Of a stretch of 64,000 nt of DNA, positions 6,071 through 48,352 are shown one piece after another; the first letter of the stretch is position 1; each line of letters begins with the position of its first letter. A program made the position numbers and the translations under genes. The stretch lies in NCBI GenBank assembly GCA_030390025.1, contig CM059432.1:22570001-22634000 (forward strand), written 5' to 3'. This stretch comes from Squalus acanthias. Its lineage: Eukaryota. A model generated the notes under the pieces. That model had not been told where the DNA came from and made no database searches. It saw nothing but the letters and a program-made list of their open reading frames with translations.

Positions 6071-7668
6071 ATGTGGACTCTGTTGGCAGCCGACGACCTG
6101 CTCCATCGTGAACGTCGGAGGCTTCTTAGGAGGAGAGCACTGCAGGGACAAAGGCCTGGAGATATGCAGGGTCAAAGGCCTGGAGATGTGCAGGGACAAA
6201 GGCCTGGAGATGTGCAGGGATAAAGGCCTGGAGATGTGCAGGGACAAAGGCCTGGAGATGTGCAGGGATAAAGGCCTGGAGATGTGCAGGCACAAAGGCC
6301 TGGAGATGTGCAGGGACAAAGGCCTGGAGATATGCAGGACAAAGGCCTGGAGATGTGCAGGCACAAAGGCCTGGAGATATGCAGGGACAAAGGCCAGGAG
6401 ATGTGCAGGGACAAAGGCCTGGAGATGTGCAGGGACAAAGGCCTGGAGATGTGCAGGGACAAAGGCCTGGAGATATGCAGGACAAAGGCCTGGAGATGTG
6501 CAGGGACAAAGGCCTGGAGATATGCAGCGAGAGAGGCATGGAGAAAGACAGCAACATGTGGCCAGAGGGAGAAGGCATAACAGGGCTGGCAACAGGAGAC
6601 CTTACTCTCCCAGGGTATTGTGGCAGCTGTTCTCGTACCTCCATTTCACTGAGGAGCAGCGTCTGCGAAGGCTGCACTTCAGCAAGGAGGTGGTAACAGA
6701 GCTCTGCCACCTCCTCCAGCCAGACCTCGAGCCTCAGACTAGGGTGAGGACGGCTCTCTCAGTGGCAGCGAAGGTGACCATCACGTTCAACTTCTATGCC
6801 AACGGTTCATTCCAACGTGCAACAGGAGACATCTCCAATGTGTCCCAGTATGCCATGAACCGCTCCATCCGAGATGTCATGGATGCACTGTATCGAAGGA
6901 GAAGGGAGTACATTTCCTTCCCTATGACCAGAGAGAAGCAGCACGAGCATGCATGTGGATTTGTCAGGATAGCGGGCTTCCCAATGGTGCAGGGCACCAT
7001 TGACTGCACCCACATTGCCTTGCAGGCACCTCAGAACAATCCTGAGGTATTCCGCAACCGAAAAGACTACCACTCGCTGAATGTTCAGCTGGTGTGCGAC
7101 CACACACACAGATTCCTAACTGTCAATGCCCAATATCCTGCAAGTAGCCACAATGCTTTTATCCTATGCCAGACCAGTGTGCCAGATCTTTTCCAGCCAC
7201 CACATCAAGCTTGTGGGTGGCTGCTCAGTGACAAGGGCTATCTGCTCTCCACCTGGCTGATGACTCCCCTACGCAACTCAAACACTCCTGCCCAGCACTC
7301 CTACAATGACAGTCATGCCACCACCAGGAGCGTGATTGAGCAGGCGATAGGAGTGCTGAAACAACGGTTCCGCTGCCTTGACCGCTTGGGAGGAGTCCTC
7401 CTGTACTCTCCTCATCGGTTCTCCCTATTTGTTGTCGTCTGCTGCATGCTACACAACTTCGCTATTACCACCAGGCATAGACGCACCACCTCAGGAGGAG
7501 GAGGAGGAGGAAGAGGAGGAGGAGGAGGACCAAGAGCAGGAGGAGAACATGGAGTAGGACAAGGAGCAGCAGCAGCAGCAGCAACAGCAGCGACGGAGGA
7601 GGCATCCAGTCAATAGGGATTCTGCAAGGACAGTCCGTGACCGTCTCATAGCAGCTCGGTTCAACTGA
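6071..7668 (+). pseudogene. Harbinger DDE transposase of element B
   Basis: FNFYANGSFQ, GTIDCTH, NRKDYHSLNVQ, LLSDKGY, RSVIEQAIG (D-D-E present), CCMLHN. Probable native start ATG 6071. Frameshift near 7465; the native C-terminus ...RDRLIAARFN* ends at 7668. Confidence 0.9.
6141..6527 (+). repeat. 24-bp minisatellite (TGCAGGGACAAAGGCCTGGAGATG), about 16 copies, in the transposase 5' coding region
   Basis: Directly visible. Two units are 23 bp (near 6333 and 6477). Confidence 0.95.
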
Positions 7669-24599: not shown

Positions 24600-25019
24600 T
24601 CCTCCCAGGCAGGCAGTCTCTGAAGACATTCAATGCAGCGGCATCAGAGGCAATGTTCAGACCTAATACTACTACCTTCATCACATCTCCGTTGTAATAG
24701 TGGACTTGCAGCCGATACTCAGCTATCCACTTGTGCTCCCGCCAGGTTTCACTGGAGTGTTTCACACCAGGCATGCTTCACGTCAGAAGAGGGTTAAACT
24801 AGCTACAGCGTTTCAAAGCCAATTTAGAGCTTGTTAAGGGCTTTAATGGCCTCTCCCGCCTCTTGGAGGCGGGACGGAATCGGGAACCCCGCGACTGATT
24901 ATGTCAAAATTGCGTGGAGGCGGGATGGAGTCGGGATAGGGTCGGAAACCCCGACCCCGCAAATTTAACCCCCCACACGCCTCCAAACTCGACTCCATGG
25001 GTCATTCAAAATCCAGCCC
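24260..25019. mobile_element. Harbinger-type MITE inserted in a CR1 fragment
   Basis: 13-bp TIR GGGCTGGATTTTG, TSD ATA. Removing it restores CR1 AGAGGCATAGAGTACAAAAGC. Internal (GA)n at about 24545-24599. Confidence 0.9.
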
Positions 25020-25432
25020 ATAGAGTACAAAAGCAAGGAAGTTATGCTAAACCTTTATAAATCACTGGTTAGGCCCCAGCTGGAGTATTGTATCCAGTTC
25101 TGGGCACCACACTTTAGGAAGGATGTGTAAGACATGTGGAAATCGCCCCATCCAACAGTTTGCAAAGTTCAGACCCGTCGAACTACAACACAAAACCCAA
25201 TGAATCTGTGAAAAACTTCTTTTACTTAAAAATCAGCAAGACATTACAAGTAAGCATCCGACAGTTATGTAGCGTATAACAATTCCTGATTATACTTTAG
25301 CATACACAGAGCTATCCCTTTACTTTAAGCTCAGGTGATAATAAGCAAAACACCACATAGGTGCTAACACCAGCGATTGGTCAATTCGGCGATGACTAGC
25401 TGTATGATTTCTGACAACTGACCAGGTTGCCC

Positions 25433-28400
25433 GGCTGCAGCAGCAGGTTTTAAAGTAAACCCCAAGAAGGCACAGAAAGGACAAAGGGAGGTTCAGTTTC
25501 TTGGGTTAACTCTTCAACCAGGAGAGCGCGCTATAGATGATGTGAAGCGTAAAACGGTCCAGGAACTGCCCCGCCCGGGGTCGATAACTGCCCTCCGATC
25601 ATTCCTGGGTCTGACGGGGTACTGTAGAGAATTCTTTGAGAATTATGAGGTAACGGTGGCTCCTCTACTGAGATTGCTTAGAAAAGGAGTAGATTAGGAA
25701 TGGGATGAGCCCTGTGAGGAGGCTTTTGTACAGTTGAAACGGGACCTGCAAATGGCCCCGGCCCTGGGGGCAATAGACCATACAAAGGTTTCTTTCTTGA
25801 GGTAGCAGCAACAGATGCTAGTCTGGGCGCTGTTTTAATGCAGGAAGTAAATGGGCAGCTGAGACCGTTAGCCTATGCCTCCAGAGTAATAACCGAGGTA
25901 GAAAAAGGAAAGAGGCACTTGCTTGCCACGTTTTGGACGGGAAGACATTTTGCCATATTCACGGGAACCCAGCCCATCACACTCCTCACCCATCACATGC
26001 CAACCCATCTCCTGTTAAAAGGCCGAATTAAAGAGGGAACATTGTCAAGCACTCGGGTAGCTGCGTGGACCCTACAGTTAGAAGGAATGGATCTGAGAGT
26101 AAGAGCACTAAGCGAGCCAAAGTTAGCAGCGAACCTTAATCATCAGGGTGGATCTCATACCTGTACAGTAGAGAGGGTGTGGGAGACAGAGGGTGGATTT
26201 AAATCCGCTATCCACCCTGAGGGGAGAGATGTATACGTGGATGGGTCCAGTTTTGTGGAGAAGGGGGAACGTAAAACAGGGTGTGGAATTTATGACCCAA
26301 AAAAAGGGATGGGAGTGGCGATTAAGTTGCCCACCACGCTTAGTGCTCAACAGTAGGAATTGGCAGCCGTAACTTATGTAGTAACGCATCCCACCGAGTT
26401 TCCCCCACCGTATACGATCTGTTCTGACTCCACGTTCACCTGTAATGCCTGTATGGAATATTTGGCGATTTGGGCTAGAAGAGGTTTTACCTCCGCGGAT
26501 TGCAAACTGTTAGTTACCGCACCAATGCTGGCGACTATCGTGGAAGCCATAGGAAAGGGAGGGAAGGACTATTACATGCATAAAGTAAAAGCGCATTCTA
26601 AAACCGAGCCCAGATGGCGGAATGAGGTGTCCCATGGGACCCGTATCAATCTGGAATGGTGGCAACCGTAACCCCGGTAGCCAATACTGTCCCGCTCCCT
26701 CCGGATCTTAAAACGGTACAGTTAGATGATATAGTATTAAAGGCTGTCCTTAGAGAAAAGAGACAGGGCAGACTGTGGAAGGACCCTACGGCGCCAGTGA
26801 TGTGCAGGTTAGGGAAGGCATGTTGTTCAAAGGGACAGTGCCCGAGGGATATCGGTAGGAATTTATGCAACTTGCCCATGGGGGACCAGGGACCGGACAC
26901 CCCGGACCCGAGACGACCTGGAAGCGGGTCGAGGAGGTGGGGTGGTGGCCTCATCTGAGGGAAAATGTAGAGGATTACTGTAAAAACTGTTTAGTGTGTG
27001 CTGCTAACAATCCTGACCCACATAAAAGGAAGGCCCCCCCCCCTCGGACATACCCGTCGACCAGAGGCACCATGGCAGTGTATCCAGATAGATTTTATCG
27101 GACCCTTGCCCACCACTAAGAAAGGCAATAAATACTGTTTAGTTTGGTGGATAATTTCACAAAGTGGGTAGAAGCTTTCCCGTGCAAGTCAGCATTGTGA
27201 ACAGCCAAGACCCTAGTTAGAGAGGTATTCTCCAGATGGGGACTTTCTCGCGTGATAGAGTCAGGCCAGGGCAGTTAATTTTCAGGTCAGTTAATGCAAG
27301 CCACTTTGAAATTGCTTGGAATTGAAGGGAAATGGCATGTGACCCACAACCCACAATCATCGGGGATTGTGGAAAGAATGAACCGTACGTTGAAGTTGGC
27401 CCTACGAAAGGAATTAAACAAACAGCACACTAAGTGAGATGAGGGACTTCCCCTAATCCTTATGGTGATACATAGTAACAGATCCAAAGGAACGGGTCAC
27501 TCCCCTCATGAATTAGTAACGGGGAGACCCATGCGAACCCCCACACACCTGTTGGTCCCCACTCTGACTGATAAACAAATTAAGGAGGTGACTCGGGACA
27601 AGTTCCTGAGCGACCTGTGGGGAACTTTAAAGGAATTGAACTTGAGGGCCGCCCACAACATTGGGAAGATACACCAAATGCAACCGACTACACTTGGCTC
27701 CGAGTAAACTCCAGGAATGGGAAGTAGGGAGCCAGGTAATGGTACGAAACTATGCGAGGATGGGTGTCTTTACAAGGGACCGTGTAGTATTGTTGACAAA
27801 GCTAGTCCTATGGTGTTTGCAGTTCAGTTACCTAAGAAAATTAAGTGGTTTCATATTAACCAAATGAAGCTTTTTCAGCTCAGCAGTGCCAGGAGACAAC
27901 AAGCCACGATCATGAGCATGGTGAGCCGGATTTATCCTCTCCAGTGGGATGATGAAGAAGGAGTGCCTAATGGGACATCCCCACTCAGTGAGGTGCCCTT
28001 ACCTGAAGTGGCGCCTCCACAGGTACAGTATGATCCAAATGAAGGTGGACAGGACACGGGAGCTGTGGAAACCTCCTCGCCCCAGGTCTGGAACCACCTC
28101 CTGACCGCAGATGAGTTCAACAGAACCCTCCTACCACACGGCACCCTTGAAGTATCATCAGTGTAGGGGGTGGTGGTGTGTGTGTCAGCTTCACCTCTGA
28201 CTTCTGAGCGGTTCGAATCGCTCCCACTCCCTTGGTTCTAGACCTTGGACTTATTTGGGGGTTGTGACAAAAGTGCAGCAGACAACTGGTTTGGTGCAAG
28301 AACTTTTGATCTTTATTCAAGAGAGTAAATATAACACAACAATCTTAACACTCTAATAAAATGGGGAACACTTCGGTACATACGAGGGAAATCACATTAG

Positions 28401-29586
28401 AAGAATACCTCACCCCTCCCAATCCCACTTTACTAGCTAAGTTGGGCTGTAGAGGACCAGGGATAATGCTCACCAAACGAATCCTTGACAGTTGAGCTGG
28501 TTCGCGGTTTCGGGGTTCGCTGGATTGGATTTATCGGGTGAGTACCCACTTTTCTTTGGTTAGAGCTAGGGTTTAGAGTCTTTTTAAGTAAAAAGTTTTG
28601 TAAGGCCCTTGTTGCCGCGAGGTGTCCGATGGTCACTGAGGCGGTCGCTCTGGTCTCTTCTTGCATGTCGGCCTACTTCTGGAGCTGTTGGCCTCCTTTG
28701 TTGAACGGTCTTGTTTTCGAGCTGTCGACCTCCTGGCTGGACACGTAACGGCTGAACGGTTGTACTGGAGAGCTGCTTCCTTGCTGCTTGCTGAACTCCT
28801 TGCTGTTTGCTTGTTGAACTTGTTTCTGTTGAACTGTGTACGGTTGTACTCGAGAACTCCTTTCTGTTGTAACTGTGTAACTGCTCCACCCTTGAACTTG
28901 TAGAGAACTTGTTGTAACTGCTGAACTGACTTCTTGAGAAAACAGGCCCTCAATTATACTAATTGGGGCCTCCCAATCAGTCCCGGTTTATTGTAAGATT
29001 TTGGCGGGCTCGTTAACAGTAACTTGTTTGTTAATGTGTGAAGTGGTTTCAGGATGGCTCCATCCTGTCGATCTGCTTGCTTGATTGTAGCTGATTGTTC
29101 TCACGTTGTGAGTTTCTTGACTGGGCCTGGGATTTCTAAAGAGTGGGTCAAAGTGATCTGCTTTATGCATGATTTGATGGGTCCTGTAATTTGGGTGGGG
29201 ACTGCTCTTCCTCAGGTCTATTGTTAGGATGTTAATGTCTGATAGGGGCCGATTTAACTCCAAGTGAGGTCATGCGGTTCCCCAGACAGTTTGATTAACT
29301 CCAATATCCAAACTGTCTTTTACAGAGGTTGAACCCAACTCCCTTTGCAGCCTTTTCTCCTTTACAAGTCCAGACAAGTCTTTCGAAATACCAAATCTTG
29401 TTTTTTTTGCTCTAAATGTCCTTCGGTTAGGCCCAATGCATTTCATCACCCTGAAGTAGTTAGAAAAGAGTCCAAAGCCCTTCTCCTTAGGGTATGTCTC
29501 TGAGTTTTGGGGGATCTGTGAATTTTGAAAATCTTACATCAGTGGTAGGAGTGAGAAAATTGCCCAAAGCAGGAAAAGAAAAGTAG
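25433..29586 (+). pseudogene. pol: Retrovirus-like pol: RT C-terminus/thumb, tether (degenerate RNase H), RNase H, integrase; interrupted by a solo LTR
   Basis: GFKVNPKKAQ...VQFLG, LRSFLGLTGYCR, RPLAYASR. Second RNase H: YVDGSS...SAQQ*EL...ICSDS...KVKAH. Integrase: HHCC (AHGGPGTGH...CKNCLVC), IQIDFIGPLP, PQSSGIVERMNRTLK. Several stops and frameshifts. The RT catalytic core and gag are missing. Confidence 0.9.
28162..29538 (-). mobile_element. Solo LTR (1377 bp) inserted near the end of pol
   Basis: TGTAGG...CTTACA termini with 4-bp TSD TCAG (28158-28161, 29539-29542). Removing it restores the pol frame ...EVSSVVGVRKLPKAGKEK*. Strand inferred from a minus-strand AATAAA near 28312. Confidence 0.85.
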
Positions 29587-29720
29587 GAAGCCCCGTTTTG
29601 TTTCGTTAAAGAAAAACATCAGTAATGAGAGCCTGAACTAATGGGGTGGACATAGGGTGCAAGGGCGGGAGTAACACTCTGTTTTTGTCCCTTATCCCCA
29701 CAGGCAAGAAGATATATAAA

Positions 29721-31880
29721 ATGAAGGAATTATTCTGGCCAATGATCGGGATTCTGCTCTATCTTGAAGATTCCACAACAGCCTATTTGGCATACTGGAC
29801 CACCACTAACTATTTTCCCTACAACAGTTCGATTGTAGTTGCCCTGGAGACACTACCCCTGGGACGCCACTCGAAACATTACCCTCCAGTACATCAAGGG
29901 TGATGGCGAAACCGCGTGTTCAGGAACAGTGTGGGTTACCACGTATGAGGTCCAGGAAGGTAGGGGGTGTATGCATAAAATGCAAAGATCGCCCCACCGG
30001 GGCCACGGGTGCGGTTCTTTCAAGCAGAACCAGGTGACCATTCAAGGTACTATCAAATAGGGAACCCTCGAGGGAATGTAGGAAGCCCGGCCCAATCCCG
30101 AGCAGCGGAAGACACTCTATTGTGTTGGCCCCGATGGTGGAAAAATCATGAGGGAATTTACGGATGTGTATAACCCAAGTGGGGTAACAGATGGGTTCCA
30201 CGGATGAGACCAGTTGTACGATGTTATCCCATGATAGAGCTAAGGAACTCTATCAATGGAATAACAACGATACCGGTATTAGCACCTATCACGTAAGGGG
30301 TTGTGGTGATGGAAGTACGGTTATACATGCAGTAGAATTAAAAGTTCGACCGAAAATTCCCCTCCCTATGAATAAAACACAATCACGGAAGGACAACATA
30401 CAACCCAGGTAACTTGCCCTAAACACACTCCAGGACCATCAAATGGGTTAGTGGTAATCCCAACTTGGATGATATTGTACATGATGTGCATCACGAGGTG
30501 GTGCCTGTAATATTGAATCTGACCGAGGTGGGACTACCGAACTGGTGCAAGCCAGAGACAGCGCGGTTATATGGGAGGATGATGCAGGAATTAATCGAGG
30601 GATTTTGGGAGAGGGCCAGCACAACACTGGCGGAATCGGAATTAGAGCTGTTATATCGCAAGGGCACTAAGGAGGGTAATGGATTTAACGATACCTTTGG
30701 GAAAAATAGTACCGAGATCATTGAAGAAAACAATGTTGGTTATGGGATTAAAGAGAACTATATCAGAAGGCGACGGGGTCTGATAAATGATGCTGCGACT
30801 ATTTTTAACACTGGAACCTCCCTCGTTAATAGCTTAGATTTGGTCAGCCTGGATCAATCTGTAAAGGCAGTTAGAAATCATCTAAGGGAAATTTTGAATA
30901 AAATAAATAGTCTGGAACAAGAGGAATTGAAGGTGAACCAAATTATGACCATTCATCTGCAGGAAGTGGTTAAATATTTATAATCCCATGCTAAAAAGAT
31001 AAATCAAATTTTAATGGAGGATCGGAATGCCTCTAGTGAGGTCACGCGAAATGATGTGTGTGTAATGTATGGATCTTGGTTAGTGGAACAAGCTCGAGAA
31101 AACCTGTGGCGCATTGCTGAGGGGAAGCTTCCCTCGGTGGTGACTGATCACACCTGAGGGCAATGTCCACTTACCAATTTATCATGAATATGTGTAAAGT
31201 CAGGGGGTTGGTACAGGTGTACCCGGTGAAACATGAATGCCATTTGCAGGAACAGAACAACATCACTCTGTTAGGGATGGTATTGTATTATCCCATTTTG
31301 CCCAAAAGGGCGACCCCAAATCCTCTATTCCGCATGGAGAATATAGGAGTACATCAGGGAGACCACTTAATAAGGTATGACAAACCCCTGAAGTATGTGA
31401 CCCGGGTGGATGGGACCACATGGGTGACCCCAGATCTTCTGGGTGTGCTCAAGCTCGGGACGCATTTATCTGCCCTTATGATGTGGTAGAACACGCAGCC
31501 CCTGCGTGCAGGTTTGATTGGGATGGGATAGAATGGAACTGCACCATGAAAGTGATTGCGGGGCAGCATTTCCCCGTAAGGTCTGCGTATCGAGAGAAGA
31601 GTGAATATTGTGTCACCACAATGCACCGGGAGTACCAGTACGGTAACGACCTGACTTGTCCTATTGCGGCGGGAACTTTTTGTTTTACCCCAGTCCAACC
31701 TGTGAGACGTGGGGCGCAGGTTTTATTAAACATTTATTTGCACAGGCAAGTAGATATCGTCGTAGAAGATGAGTTAAAGGAACACTTACACCAGTACATG
31801 ACTCAATTCAGCTATGACATTCCACCTCTGCCAGAACACTTGGTAGAGTTAATGAGACACGTTAGTCAGTCCCAAAAGCC
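29721..31880 (+). pseudogene. env: env-like fusion glycoprotein gene (F-protein-like), disrupted and 3'-truncated
   Basis: Directly downstream of pol. Furin site RRRR (30765-30776), then GLINDAATIFNTGTSLVNSLDL, heptad-like helices and a Cys-rich domain (PDLLGC...FICPYD...CRF...NCTM...YCVTT...TCP...FCF). N-glycosylation sequons (NSS, NLT, NDT, NIT). Confidence 0.8.
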
Positions 31881-33035: not shown

Positions 33036-33538
33036 AAACATAGAAACATAGAAGATAGGAGCAGAGTAGGCCATTCTGCCCCTCGAGCCTGCTCCGCCAT
33101 TTAATGAGATCATGGCTGATCATCCAAGTTCAGTACCCTGTCCCTGCTTTCTCCCCATATCCCTTGATCCCTTTAGCCTTAAGAAATATATCTAACTCCT
33201 TCTTGAATATATTTAATGAATTGGCCTCAACTGCCTTGTGTGGTAGAGAATTCCACAGGTTCACCACTCTCTGGGTGAAGAAATTCCTCCTCATCTCAGT
33301 CCTAAATGGCTTACCCCTTATCCTTAGACTGTGACCCCTGGTTCTGGACTCCCCCGCCATCGGGAACATCCTTCCTGCATCTAGTCTGTCAAGTCCTGTT
33401 AGAATTTTATAAGTTTCAATGAGATCCCCTCTCATTCTTCTAAGCTCTAGCGAATACAAGCCCAATCGTCCCAATCTCTCTTCATACGTCATTCCTGCCA
33501 TCCCAGGTATCAGTCTGGTGAATCTTCGCTGCACTCCC
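33036..33538 (-). mobile_element. CR1 LINE 3' fragment
   Basis: ORF 33130-33534 [11 protein letters not shown]...; (TTTCTATG)n tail; flanking TTAAT repeats. Confidence 0.92.
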
Positions 33539-35495
33539 TTAATGGTACACGTAGGTTGGACCTTGTTGGGTTGAGGTAGGCTTGATGGACAAGTTGGTCT
33601 TTTCCTGATCTTCTTGTATGTTTGTGCATTTGTATGTAAATAAGTTATGTCTGTTAAATTAATTTTGTTTTATTGAAAGGGGCGCAGAAGCTGCTTTGAT
33701 ACTCACTGTTATGTTAAAGATGAAATAGTGAAATGGTATAAACGGAATAAGTAATGGCAGAATGACTGTAGCCAAACAGTTATGGCGAGTTGATGGAAAA
33801 GAAAGCATGATGGTGAGGCCTTGTGGTATCTGGCCAAACTGAATATGATGACTGATTGATTATGTCTTCTTGCTGTTGACCCTGTGGCCATCTTGAATGT
33901 TAAGACTAAAGACCCAAATTAGTGAAACTCCTTTCTTAGAACACAGTCTACTTAACAGAAGCGCAATCATAGAATTGAATATGAAGGTAAATGTGCCTGA
34001 TACACGGCGCATCTAGCTATTAAAATAAATAATAAGCACAGTATGTTGGGCCTGCTGGCTTCCATGCCCAATTCTCCAATTTTCACTCTTGTCGAGCAAC
34101 ACTCCACATAAAGAGCAGAATCTTGCAGTTTCAGGATGCCATTCATATGTAAGGAGGCTGATACCAAAAGTTTTTATTTAAATTCACTATATTTGGGGCT
34201 CCAGGCTGCTTCTCTGATCTGGACTATCTCCCACCACCAGTGGGACGAACGTCTGGAAACTGTACGCCTCATCTCATTAGGCGTACTGGCCTCCAGATTT
34301 ATGTCGGATCCCCAGTCCCGGCCTTGGCCCTGCCTTCTCTGAGTCTGTGGCTCCGCCCCTTACAAAGCCAAGTGGAAATTCCCAGATCAGGCCAGGACTC
34401 GGCGTATCTGGATCTGGCTGATTACCCTGCCTCGTTTGGTGGGAGTACAGCAAAGCTGCCAAGTACGTTCCGCCCTGTTGTCATTTTGCACATTTTAGAC
34501 TGCCACTGCCACCCCTAGCCGATCCGATGGGGTAGGTTACATGGATGGCCTATGTGCTTCCCACATTGTTTCCATTTACTTCAATGGGAGCTGACCCTTC
34601 AAAGTGTCCTGAAGGCTGATGTAGAACCAGCCAAACTGAGATTATAGGTGATTTGTTTAAACAGAAAGGGGGAAAAAAAAATGCCATTTATTTCCTCTCA
34701 TTATTTTGTAAGACAAATACTCGAATTATTATGCTAATTGTCTTAATGTTCCACACTGAATCATATGATAATCAATAACCTTACAAATCCAAGGCAGCAG
34801 TATACGGATTAATGTGAAATCCTCTCATGAAGACAGATAAAATGACTTGGCTAGGCAAACACACTCTTAGGCAGATTCATAAGATAGAGACAGCTTGTCC
34901 AACTATGAAATCACACTTGAACCGTAACAGCCGAGTTATGGCTGAAATCAGTCTTAAACCTGGGGCATCCAGTCTATGCCGTATATTTCATCTAACCTTA
35001 AGAGCGATAGATTCACTGAATGTCGTGAAAGTACATTAGTCTGAAAGGGGCCTGGCATTTTGCTGGTAACCCGCTAGGGCAGGTCCAGTTCATGTACTCA
35101 TACATGTCAAACTAGAAAACTAGCAAAAGCTAACCAATTGCTTCAACAAGGCTGACACAGATCAAAAAAATCTGACAGGACAAAAATAGCCTGGACTGAC
35201 TATATGACAGGTGTATTTTTGGGACAACTCTAATGCTGCTTTCCCAGCGAAATGTTTTTTTTTTCTGTAATAATTGCAAACATTTTAAATTTCAGAATAT
35301 ATTTGTTATAGGGACTTCAATAAAATTTTACAGGGGTCAGTTCACGAGGAATCTAACCCCAGGCACATCATGTGAATTTGCTAACTGAAACTTTTCACGG
35401 TGCGCACCTACAATAATCCCAATGTACATTCTACATTGACAATCCAAAACTGCCTCATTATTGCATCTGTCCCTGTCTTGGGCCCTATAGCACAC

Positions 35496-36078
35496 TTCTT
35501 CTTCTCCTTCTCTTCTTAGACAGTCCCTCGGAACCGAGGATGACTTGCTTCCACATTAAAAATGAGTTCTCAGGTGACTGACGAGTCCATTGCGGGACCT
35601 ACAGTCTCTGTCACAGGTGGGGCAGACGGTGGTTGAAGGGGCGGGTGGGTGGGGTGCTTGTGTTGACGTGCGCTCCTTGCGCTGCTTGCGCTTGGCTTCC
35701 GCTTGCTCCCGGCGAAGAGACTCGAGGTGTTCGGCGCCTTCCCGGATGCTTCTCCTACACTGTGTCGGTGGGGATGTTGCACTTTTTCAAGGAGGCTTTG
35801 AGGGTGTCCTCTGCCACCTGGGGCTCTCTTGCCGTGTCGGAGCTCCGAGTAGAGCGCTTGTTTTGGGAGTCTTGTATTGGGCATGTGGACGATGTGACCC
35901 GTCCATCGGAGCTGATCGAGCGTGGTCAAAGCCTCGATGCTGGGGATGTTGGCTTGAGCGAGAACACTGACGTTGGTGCGCCTATCCTGCCAATGGATTT
36001 GCAGGATTTTGTGGAGGCAGCGTTGGTGGTACCTCTCCAGTGCATTGAGGTACCTGCAGTACATGGTCCATGCTGTAC
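35496..36078 (-). mobile_element. RTE LINE 3' fragment
   Basis: LERYHQRCLHKILQIHWQD...QLRWTGHIVHMPNTRLPKQALYSEL. AAG-rich tail. TSD ATAGCACAC (35487-35495, 36079-36087). Confidence 0.92.
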
Positions 36079-37266
36079 ATAGCACACAGGCAGATGGCGA
36101 AAACCTGGATTGAGGGTGTGGCTGATTTAACCATTTTAAATAAACGTTTTAAATTTTTAAATAGCTGTCTAAAATCCAATAATATTAACAGATGAAAAGT
36201 TTAGAATGGTGCACCCCTGATTTCCTTTTATATATATGGTTGGCGGGCAATGTCCCGCGCCAGGAGAACACATTAGGAAAATCAACCTTTTTGTGCGAGC
36301 TCTGATGAAGGGTTACACCCAAGTATTAACCTGTCTATTTCACTTATAGATGCTGACCAACATGCTGCGCATTTCTATTTTAAAACCTTGAAATGCTTGA
36401 AACCAGAAGTTACTGTTAATGATAATAGCAGACAAATATAACAGGCTTTTAACAATAAGCTGTCAGCCTTGGCTCAGTGGTAGCAGCCTTGCCTTTGAGT
36501 CTGAGAGATGTTAAAGGCACCATATCAATGCAAGTTGTTGTTGTTGGTAAGATGAATTTTAAATAGGAAAGGAAGGCATGTACATTTATATAGTGCCTTT
36601 CACAACCTCAGCATGTCCCAAAGCACTTTACAGCCAATGAAGTACTTTTGAAGTGTAGTTACCATTGTAATGTAGGGAAATACGCTTACTCTTCATCTCA
36701 AAAGATGGAGCTGTAACCAGTTTAGAAGAAAATAAATGTCATTTAAGACAAGAACTTGGCGCACCCCAGGCTCCTCCTTTGATTTAGCAGCTTATTTCTT
36801 TGGGGAGAAATACTAAATGACCACACATATAGATGCAAAATTATCAGCTCATCTTAAAACATTTCCCTGCCTTAACCAATAGTGGAAGAACATAACATCT
36901 AATCTGATTGGTTCTAAAAGGCTCCATTCCTACTGTCCAATTGGTTTTGATAACTCTAGTCCCACCTTCTAACTCATCTGATTAATATTGATGACCTCCA
37001 ATCCCAGTGAAGAAAGCTGATTTATTTTTTGTGACACACTAGCAAGCTGACACGAGTTGAAATTTTGACTGTCAGTTTGATCACAGTTGACATATGTGCA
37101 TAATTACACTGTGACATTCTGGTACATATTGGATAGTGAGGCTTCTGCTTGTTGGAATAGAGCTAGCAGGCTTCTGCCATCTTCTTTGTAGGTCTTGCTT
37201 ATAGTACCTGGTATCAATGCTGCAGTGTATTTTATTTGTTTTTACACATTCTCTCCCCATTATAGT

Positions 37267-47191: not shown

Positions 47192-47549
47192 CACAAAAAC
47201 ACATGTTGAGGCACTTGCACACGTCCCTGCTAACAAGGAACCTCTGGCTGAAGAACAAGAACGAAAGGTGAAAATAAATAAGCAAGAGAATTTTTGCTTG
47301 AATTATTTGAAGCATAAATTTCCTTCATGATGAACAAATATATTAAAGCATACCATGCTGGAACAGGTAACAAAATGTATTGTACAACCACGTACAATGA
47401 ATTATACAATATGGATTAATCATTGATCAGTGACAAAACAACGAACCGTAATCTTTTTGATACATCTGTGATCAGGCCCAGTCAAAACATAGGAATTGGA
47501 TCACGTGACTGATGGGTGGCAAAACGAGTTATAATATTGCCCTTACTCC

Positions 47550-48123
47550 TGCTCCAGAGACCAGGTAAGGCCTCAGAGCGTCGGCGGGAGTTTCAGCGGT
47601 GGCAGTGGGCCTATAAAAGGCTCCAGAGATCAGGTAAGGTCTCAGAGCGTCGGCGGGAGTTTCAGCGGCGGCAGTGGGCCTATAAAAGGCTCCAGAGACC
47701 AGGTAAGGCCTCAGAGCGTCGGCAGGAGTGTCAGCGGCGGCAGTGGGCCTATAAAAGGCTCCAGAGACCAGGTAAGGCCTCAGGGCGTCGGCGGGAGTGT
47801 CAGCAGCGGCAGTGGGCCTATAAAAGGCTCCAGAGACCAGGTAAGGCCTCAGAGCGTCGGCGAGAGTGTCAGCAGCGGCAGTGGGCCTATAAAAGGCTCC
47901 AGAGACCAGGTAAGGCCTCAGAGCGTCGGCGGGAGTTTCAGCGGCGGTAGCGGGCCTATAAAAGGCTCCAGAGACCAGGTAAGGCCTCAGAGCGTCAGTG
48001 GGAGTTTCAGCGGCGGCAGTGGGCCTATAAAAGGCTCCAGAGACCAGGTAAGGCCTCAGAGCGTCAGTGGGAGTTTCAGCGGCGGCAGTGGGCCTATAAA
48101 AGGCTCCAGAGACCAGGTAAGGC
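47550..48123 (+). repeat. 69-bp tandem monomer array (8 units plus a partial) forming the CR1 5' end
   Basis: Units start near 47550, 47619, 47688, 47757, 47826, 47895, 47964, 48033, 48102. Each full unit has CAGGTAAG and CTATAAAAG. Confidence 0.95.
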
Positions 48124-48352
48124 GTACCAGTCTCTGAACTCGGAGGGAAAAATAATCGAAGTGTGACGTCACCAAAAAACAGGTAAGTGATTGGTTGGTG
48201 AGTATTTCTCTCTTTTTAAGCTTAAATTCTGTGATGTTAAATTTCTAGGGTCTCTGTGGTATAGTGGGGACAGTTGGTAAATAAAGCGCCCTAGAGTATA
48301 TCTGTAACTGGGGTATTGAATACATTTTTTAATTTAATTAAGGGAGTAGGTC

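Follow-up and report, generated by a model that had tools for sequence, protein, structure and literature searches.

A degraded endogenous retrovirus in Squalus acanthias with a canonical retroviral reverse transcriptase and a predicted F-type envelope

A 64,000-nucleotide stretch of the Squalus acanthias genome (assembly GCA_030390025.1, contig CM059432.1, positions 22,570,001 to 22,634,000; hereafter the window) carries a retrovirus-like element with two ribonuclease H (RNase H) domains and an envelope (env) gene. An earlier note on this DNA, made from the sequence, read the element as a candidate lokiretrovirus on the strength of its dual RNase H and F-like Env, which raises the question of whether lokiretroviruses extend to cartilaginous fish. 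Our analysis indicates that the family to which the element belongs is not a lokiretrovirus. The element is very probably a dead copy, cut short and in part inverted, of a multi-copy endogenous retrovirus (ERV) family in this shark; the family has the reverse transcriptase (RT) of a canonical retrovirus, likely of the class III or snakehead retrovirus (SnRV)-related grade, and a predicted F-type class I Env. The shark origin of the DNA, suspected in the note, was borne out by a Sox2 identical to those of Heterodontus francisci and Scyliorhinus canicula, and by a protein cluster whose named members (10 of 12) are all chondrichthyan.

Translation and Pfam searches confirmed the proposed domain order on the plus strand at 25436-31879, namely RT thumb, tether, second RNase H, integrase and env. 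The RT thumb and connection (25436-25790; RVT_1 tail, E 0.049) aligned by tblastn to residues 360-480 of the database protein P0001, and were followed by the tether, a degenerate Ty3-type RNase H (RT_RNaseH, PF17917; 25790-26083, E 3.7e-12). The second RNase H (RNase_H, PF00075; 26231-26602, E 6.2e-13) had been described as complete, but it covers positions 6-124 of a profile of 141, carries one internal stop (read as X) and lacks its C-terminal end; P0001 residues 756-772 had no counterpart in the window copy by tblastn. The integrase (26760-27880, plus strand), interrupted by stops and frameshifts, consists of an HHCC zinc domain (Integrase_H2C2, PF17921; 26862-27014, E 1.1e-15), a core (rve; 27144-27353, E 5.2e-5, under the cut-off) and an SH3-like C-terminal domain (PF24626/PF22938, E 0.03). 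Of the HHCC-DDE integrase noted previously the zinc domain stands, but the catalytic triad is not intact. This copy lacks the RT fingers and palm as well as the protease and gag, and the upstream part is kept in others.

The env gene does lie downstream of pol, as had been noted, but a 1377-bp solo long terminal repeat (LTR) is found in between, and env ends ahead of its membrane anchor. It occupies 29721-31879 of the plus strand, is broken by stops and frameshifts, and likely encoded an F-type class I fusogen. Its translation includes a furin-type cleavage site, RRRRG with the cut ahead of the G (30765-30779), followed by a likely fusion peptide and heptad region; the motif was also found in two further copies and, in variant form, in one. 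A pyrimidine tract with an AG (29683-29703, plus strand), matched at 96% in another copy, is a likely env splice acceptor. The N-terminal env segment at 29839-30204 is rich in Cys, Trp and Tyr, and Pfam matched no Ig-like domain there. The window copy is without present coding function.

The element is no chance assembly, since pol and env recur in the 3.71-Gb genome. We found at least 39 further copies of pol, with identities of 77-89% (40 of 443 candidates scored, window included), and at least 39 of env, with identities of 86-90% (40 of 394 candidates scored, window included). The fuller copies that the earlier note had proposed to look for do exist, with gag, the RT core and, at two loci, both LTRs. 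They define a layout of LTR, primer-binding site, gag, pro, pol, env and LTR over ~10 kb, with TG...CA LTRs of ~700-750 bp. The primer-binding site, which we take to be of the tRNA-Lys(UUU) type, lies a few bases past the 5' LTR in 8 of 10 copies. Five of 10 copies have one CCHC knuckle in gag, and at 5 of 7 loci an in-frame TGA stands 36 codons ahead of the protease motif. The two loci with a pair of LTRs measure 10.1 and 11.3 kb, and their 4-bp flanks match at three of four bases each. Their LTR-LTR distances (Kimura two-parameter, 0.093 and 0.080) give ages of 18-21 My under the mammalian rate and of 181-211 My under the tenfold lower one assumed in Han 2015 (PMC4422223).

Features of Env in these other copies are a furin site, a heptad region, a beta region rich in cysteine, an anchor (KD19 2.8) and a tail that is short and basic. 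None of the family loci retrieved offered a stop-free piece spanning the whole gene. In the ancestor, reverse transcription would have been primed by a tRNA, Gag-Pol was likely made by read-through of the in-frame TGA, as judged from sequence, and Env would have been translated from a spliced mRNA. Furin cleavage would have freed the fusion peptide and the heptad repeat, which may have refolded as in paramyxovirus F, and integration would have generated 4-bp duplications.

The RT, the character by which lokiretroviruses are defined, places the family elsewhere. Its motifs LDISNGFW, LPQGFHNS and QYVDD correspond to the SnRV row of Dataset S3 of PMC7947760 and match 0 of the 23 lokiretroviral rows consulted there, in which [RT]xPFGY/L and [IF]YVDD-type motifs are found. 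As references for trees we employed the Pol proteins of SnRV (P0006, whose motifs equal the SnRV row), of five lokiretroviruses (including P0096 from Labeo rohita, equal to the Loki-Lro row of the same dataset over the stretch compared), and of a walleye epsilonretrovirus, along with gamma-like, bird ERV and Gypsy Pols. In a 70-row RT tree (P0161 and P0087 dropped as short; bootstrap not fully settled), the family fell within canonical Retroviridae with support of 100/99, and the lokiretroviruses formed a clade outside (100/100). A mixture-model tree of 50 rows, which leaves out the window thumb, 14 further references and 10 Gypsy rows to shorten the run, as well as L075, L085, L087 and L089 (short) and L084 (seven stops), agreed with values of 100/99 and 100/99. 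Uniting the family and lokiretroviruses in one clade was rejected in two approximately unbiased (AU) tests (p-AU 0.0089 and 0.0179). A tether tree that included the window's own tether grouped it with canonical retroviral tethers, while lokiretroviral and Gypsy RNase H came together (97/97). The second-RNase H tree, with an unresolved backbone and no foamy rows, did not group the family with lokiretroviruses. Over the RT-tether query, the nearest database relatives were P0001 (64% identity) and frog Pols (41-44%).

Both RT trees also support the earlier view that the element is neither Gypsy nor epsilonretroviral, and set it apart from gammaretroviruses as well. The gamma/epsilon clade (100/100) excluded the family in each. 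An env-bearing, errantivirus-like Ty3/Gypsy element would agree with the fact that errantiviruses have an F-type Env and with values of 0.94 for Baculo_F/Gypsy clusters in the Atlas, but both trees place the RT outside Gypsy (100/99) and the RNase H is dual, where Ty3/Gypsy elements typically have one, and we regard this explanation as almost certainly wrong. An Odin retrotransposon, for which dual RNase H, no env and an RT sister to lokiretroviruses would be expected, was rejected as well, as env is present and the RT is canonical; the trees hold no Odin sequence.

A search of the genome with a lokiretroviral RT gave no match above 48% identity (150 scored of 13,717 candidates, so that lokiretroviral presence is bounded only from below), as compared to 60-65% between lokiretroviruses over the same stretch and 35-42% between lokiretroviruses and class III-like elements. 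The canonical PQGFHN motif was present in 9 of the 10 top loci. The same query returned many class III-like RT loci (e.g. L090-L099) with long stop-free frames, indicating that these related families are younger than the window copy. Membership of the lokiretroviruses is excluded by the motifs and both trees of the RT, by both AU tests and by the tether tree.

Regarding Env, none of the six window pieces matched Fusion_gly, or any other Env family, in Pfam; the F-likeness of the window env comes from a homologue at another genomic locus. A stricter first look for Fusion_gly (PF00523) across the genome gave three sub-threshold matches, two of them unrelated and the third lying in the env gene of another ERV family (L041, G000:C6:89050000-89059999), a gene that the window-family profile matches at E 1e-51. 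The best Atlas cluster for the L041 Env was Fusion_gly F0 (0.95, 213 of 256 features); the window family's own env piece gave a weak result with mixed families (0.92). When a model of the homologue, built from 72 natural pieces, was compared to the PDB with Foldseek, all six matches at E<=0.001 were foamy Env, respiratory syncytial virus F or human parainfluenza virus 3 F, the best being post-fusion foamy Env (E 1.6e-4). The BFVD database yielded 18 matches at the same threshold, mostly negative-strand virus glycoproteins, with feline foamy Env at rank 4 and one baculovirus F. The Envs of walleye dermal sarcoma virus and walleye epidermal hyperplasia virus 1 matched there as well (E 2e-5 and 3e-5), which suggests that the epsilonretrovirus Env is also F-like in its predicted fold. 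The F-like Env of the earlier note consequently remains likely by way of the homologue's Atlas cluster and Foldseek matches, and not through any window piece; on these models, the family Env is likely an F-type class I fusogen.

Other searches were less informative. A wide structure search with VIA-align returned coiled coils only (best Z 5.8), and single-sequence folding of a family env piece reached a pLDDT of only 39.9. By sequence, the PDB held no Env relative (F proteins appeared only below threshold, the best at E 0.88), and none was found in the protein database (0 of 1398 candidates), in viral contigs or among the collected reference proteins. A search of sequencing runs listed no RNA data set as a carrier. 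The anchor-proximal Env piece of another copy contained neither an immunosuppressive domain (ISD) nor CX6CC, and no TLV_coat match was obtained.

Env homologues are widespread in the genome, with at least 102 matches at 33-89% identity to the query (88 of 10,497 candidates scored). We examined 17 loci with a homologous env; 16 had a Pol match, and in 0 of these 16 was a lokiretrovirus the closest reference. Five RTs from such loci formed a clade with P0033 (100/99) apart from the window family in the 50-row tree, and F-type env homologues adjoin at least two separate class III-like Pol lineages. L041 and L074-L089 make up a second ERV group, with a homologous, likely F-type env and a Pol closest to Xenopus tropicalis P0033; the RT of L088 falls in Gypsy and probably belongs to a nested element.

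The structural matches bring a further candidate into view, a foamy-like ERV (clade Tu) with an F-like Env. Foamy Env is the best PDB match of the model, its feline form stands high in the BFVD list, and for P0001 the top match among integrase chains is to that of foamy virus; foamy-like ERVs are also reportedly present in cartilaginous fish. We nevertheless find a foamy-like origin very improbable. The family Gag carries a CCHC knuckle, which foamy Gag is not known to have; the RT-tether region scores 121 bits with foamy virus versus 159 bits with a gammaretroviral RT; the env pieces scanned gave no foamy Env match in Pfam; the family Env has ~700 codons, as compared to 981 amino acids in foamy Env; and one copy examined leaves no space for accessory genes between env and the LTR.

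To our knowledge, a dual RNase H is present in all canonical retroviruses, and since foamy and walleye Envs are F-like, the combination on which the lokiretroviral assignment had been founded fails to identify that lineage. An F-type Env is not diagnostic in itself, given that foamy Env (PMC11468914) and, as predicted, the walleye epsilonretrovirus Env share this character.

A number of observations weigh against our assignment of the family to a class III-like grade with an F-type Env. In the integrase tree (nine short references dropped, CGIN1 absent), the family and its frog and coelacanth relatives are weakly sister to lokiretroviruses (81/88) and lie far from the SnRV integrase. Tether and integrase both score higher against lokiretroviruses than against SnRV (for the integrase, 140-167 bits for four of five lokiretroviral references versus 72). 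No tree gives a supported clade of SnRV and the family, SnRV being unplaced in the 70-row RT tree and with gamma/epsilon (90/85) in the 50-row RT tree, so that the term 'SnRV-related' is founded on motifs and on published work. Foamy, Odin, HERV-L, alpha-, beta- and lentiretroviral and CmiERV sequences are absent from all trees, the window copy covers only 32% of the RT columns, and the CCHC knuckle is in the protease frame in only 2 of 7 loci. As to Env, the L041 protein matches Pfam Fusion_gly at E 0.086, under the cut-off, and its Atlas 'recognition' value is low (1368); the model of the homologue has a pLDDT of 48, a pTM of 0.28 and TM-scores of about 0.15-0.2; and the modelled protein is only ~24-33% identical to window-family pieces.

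The integrase tree and the tether and integrase scores also speak for a first lokiretrovirus in cartilaginous fish, together with the layout known from that lineage (dual RNase H, an R-x-R-R site and a likely F-type Env; PMC7947760) and the NCBI label 'NYNRIN-like', common to lokiretroviral Pol and to the family's frog relatives. Against this stand the RT, the tether, the 16 Pol-bearing env loci and the low identities of the genome search described above, and we hold this reading to be very improbable. The conflict between the RT and integrase trees could alternatively point to a recombinant, in which a canonical class III RT was combined with an integrase and an F-type env from a lokiretrovirus-like donor. 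This proposal concerns origin and is compatible with the class III-like assignment. Env swapping does appear to be common, as CmiERV lineage I, of the same Pol grade, carries an Env that is gamma-type by eye (ISD and CX6CC), and other class III ERVs likewise have gamma-type Envs. However, frog and coelacanth relatives also possess the Loki-like integrase, and at least two separate Pol lineages of this genome are accompanied by an F-type env; old shared ancestry fits these data equally well; recombination is thus a possible but somewhat doubtful origin.

We read the rearrangements of the window copy against ten other copies. The element begins not at 25433, as first annotated, but at 25126, with a 3' half-LTR of the family itself, inverted with respect to pol (25126-25441, minus strand; 89% identity to positions 436-751 of another copy's LTR). 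The CA end of this half, an end motif common to other copies, adjoins host repeat DNA at 25125, and a short overlap links the half to the RT thumb. On the right, similarity to other copies ends at 31879, and the membrane anchor is present in another copy. The solo LTR between pol and env (28162-29538, TG...CA ends) derives from another element. It is flanked by a 4-bp target duplication (28158-28161 and 29539-29542), is assigned to the minus strand from TATA- and AATAAA-like motifs, and is absent from the other copies aligned at its left (three) and right (two) junctions. It starts with TGTAAG like the family LTR and has no full-length match in ten other loci. Most simply, these features suggest that the copy originally inserted on the minus strand into host repeat DNA, that it then underwent an inversion whose breakpoints lay in the 3' LTR and in the RT thumb, and that everything beyond 31879 would later have been lost and the foreign solo LTR acquired. 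Autointegration was rejected as the origin of the inversion, since the internal junction lies in the middle of the LTR and not at its end.

Fragments of long and short interspersed nuclear elements, presumably CR1- and RTE-like, fill much of the window (e.g. 25019-25125, 33037-33669 and 35570-36148), and the left end of the element lies inside one of them. Tandem arrays with periods of 24 bp and 69 bp are found at 6074-6624 and 47482-48240, respectively. Elsewhere in the genome, L002 together with L001 (G000:C1:123953000-123969999) displays a 5'-truncated family copy, running from RT to mid-env and then LTR, between 185-bp direct repeats of 97% identity; these far exceed an integrase target duplication. 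Several copies contain an inserted element of ~900 bp with 96-99% identity (L013:5117-6014; L017-L018, three copies; L001), apparently a young mobile element.

The proposed extension of the lokiretroviral host range to sharks does not hold, and dual RNase H plus an F-like Env is unusable for calling a lokiretrovirus. The earlier note's implication that lokiretroviruses were unreported in Chondrichthyes was correct as far as supplementary Fig. S1 of PMC7947760 goes (0 of 6 genomes), and the literature searched, with subscription papers, Repbase and some supplements outside its scope, contained no report of them in sharks. Within the same scope, no report was found of a class III/SnRV-grade Pol with an F-type Env; related work includes PMC12440569, PMC12193657, PMC12583693, bioRxiv 2023.10.26.564294, PMC10435555, PMC9967133, PMC8278194 and PMC13709493. 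The family may already be catalogued, for example in Repbase/Dfam (ERV4) or in the supplement of Xu 2018, and the class III/SnRV-related grade is already known from cartilaginous fish (PMC4422223, PMC6001957).

The remaining interest lies in the several class III-like shark families with a likely F-type Env. The origin of retroviral env is open (PMC7947760, PMC9040795), with four scenarios set out by Wang and Han (PMC7947760). We tentatively put forward, as one conceivable outcome, that sharks hold several basal canonical retrovirus lineages which retain a Loki-like integrase together with an F-type Env; considered along with the foamy and walleye Envs, the F-type fusogen might then be ancestral to all retroviruses and lokiretroviruses, with gamma- and beta-type Env replacing it later. 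If true, such an ancestral Env would help to choose among the four scenarios, and the shark env fossils are naturally diverse enough to support an Env phylogeny, which could test F-type ancestry.

Among known systems, CmiERV lineage I of the elephant shark (Han 2015, PMC4422223) is similar in its RT, tether, RNase H and integrase motifs, which are near-identical by eye, as well as in its CCHC Gag, the in-frame TGA at the gag-pol junction and its cartilaginous-fish host. It differs in having a gamma-type Env (ISD and CX6CC, by eye), whose two motifs the family Env is without, and another primer site. This lineage clusters with SnRV (PMC4422223), and clade Huo, which is SnRV-related and takes in class III ERVs, is found in every major lineage of vertebrates (Xu et al. 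2018, PMC6001957). An anamniote Env survey (bioRxiv 2021.11.23.469661) describes, in its accessible portion, gamma- and beta-type Envs only, and notes class III Pol with a gamma-type Env. SnRV itself (P0006) shares the RT motifs and has the top RT score among non-ERV references (165 bits), but its integrase is distant, with an MLVIN_C-type C-terminus, and it has a 136-residue Env tail and accessory open reading frames (ORFs), where the family has a short Env tail.

The nearest database relatives are frog and coelacanth ERV Pols labelled 'NYNRIN-like' or 'Gypsy integrase-like' (P0002, P0003, P0031, P0033 and P0005), together with P0001 and P0143; the frog and coelacanth proteins have the Loki-like integrase in common with the family. 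Lokiretroviruses (Wang and Han 2020, PMC7947760) share with the family a dual RNase H, a furin site, an Env that is likely F-type and, through a weak sister relation, the integrase type, their Env being Mononegavirales F-like with an RxKR site, fusion peptide, coiled coil and anchor; they differ in RT and tether lineage, and no smc-like ORF was noticed in the family. Foamy virus differs in Gag type, Env length and RT, but its Env, which resembles paramyxo- and pneumovirus F (PMC11468914), belongs with these F proteins to the same predicted fold class as the Env of the shark family.

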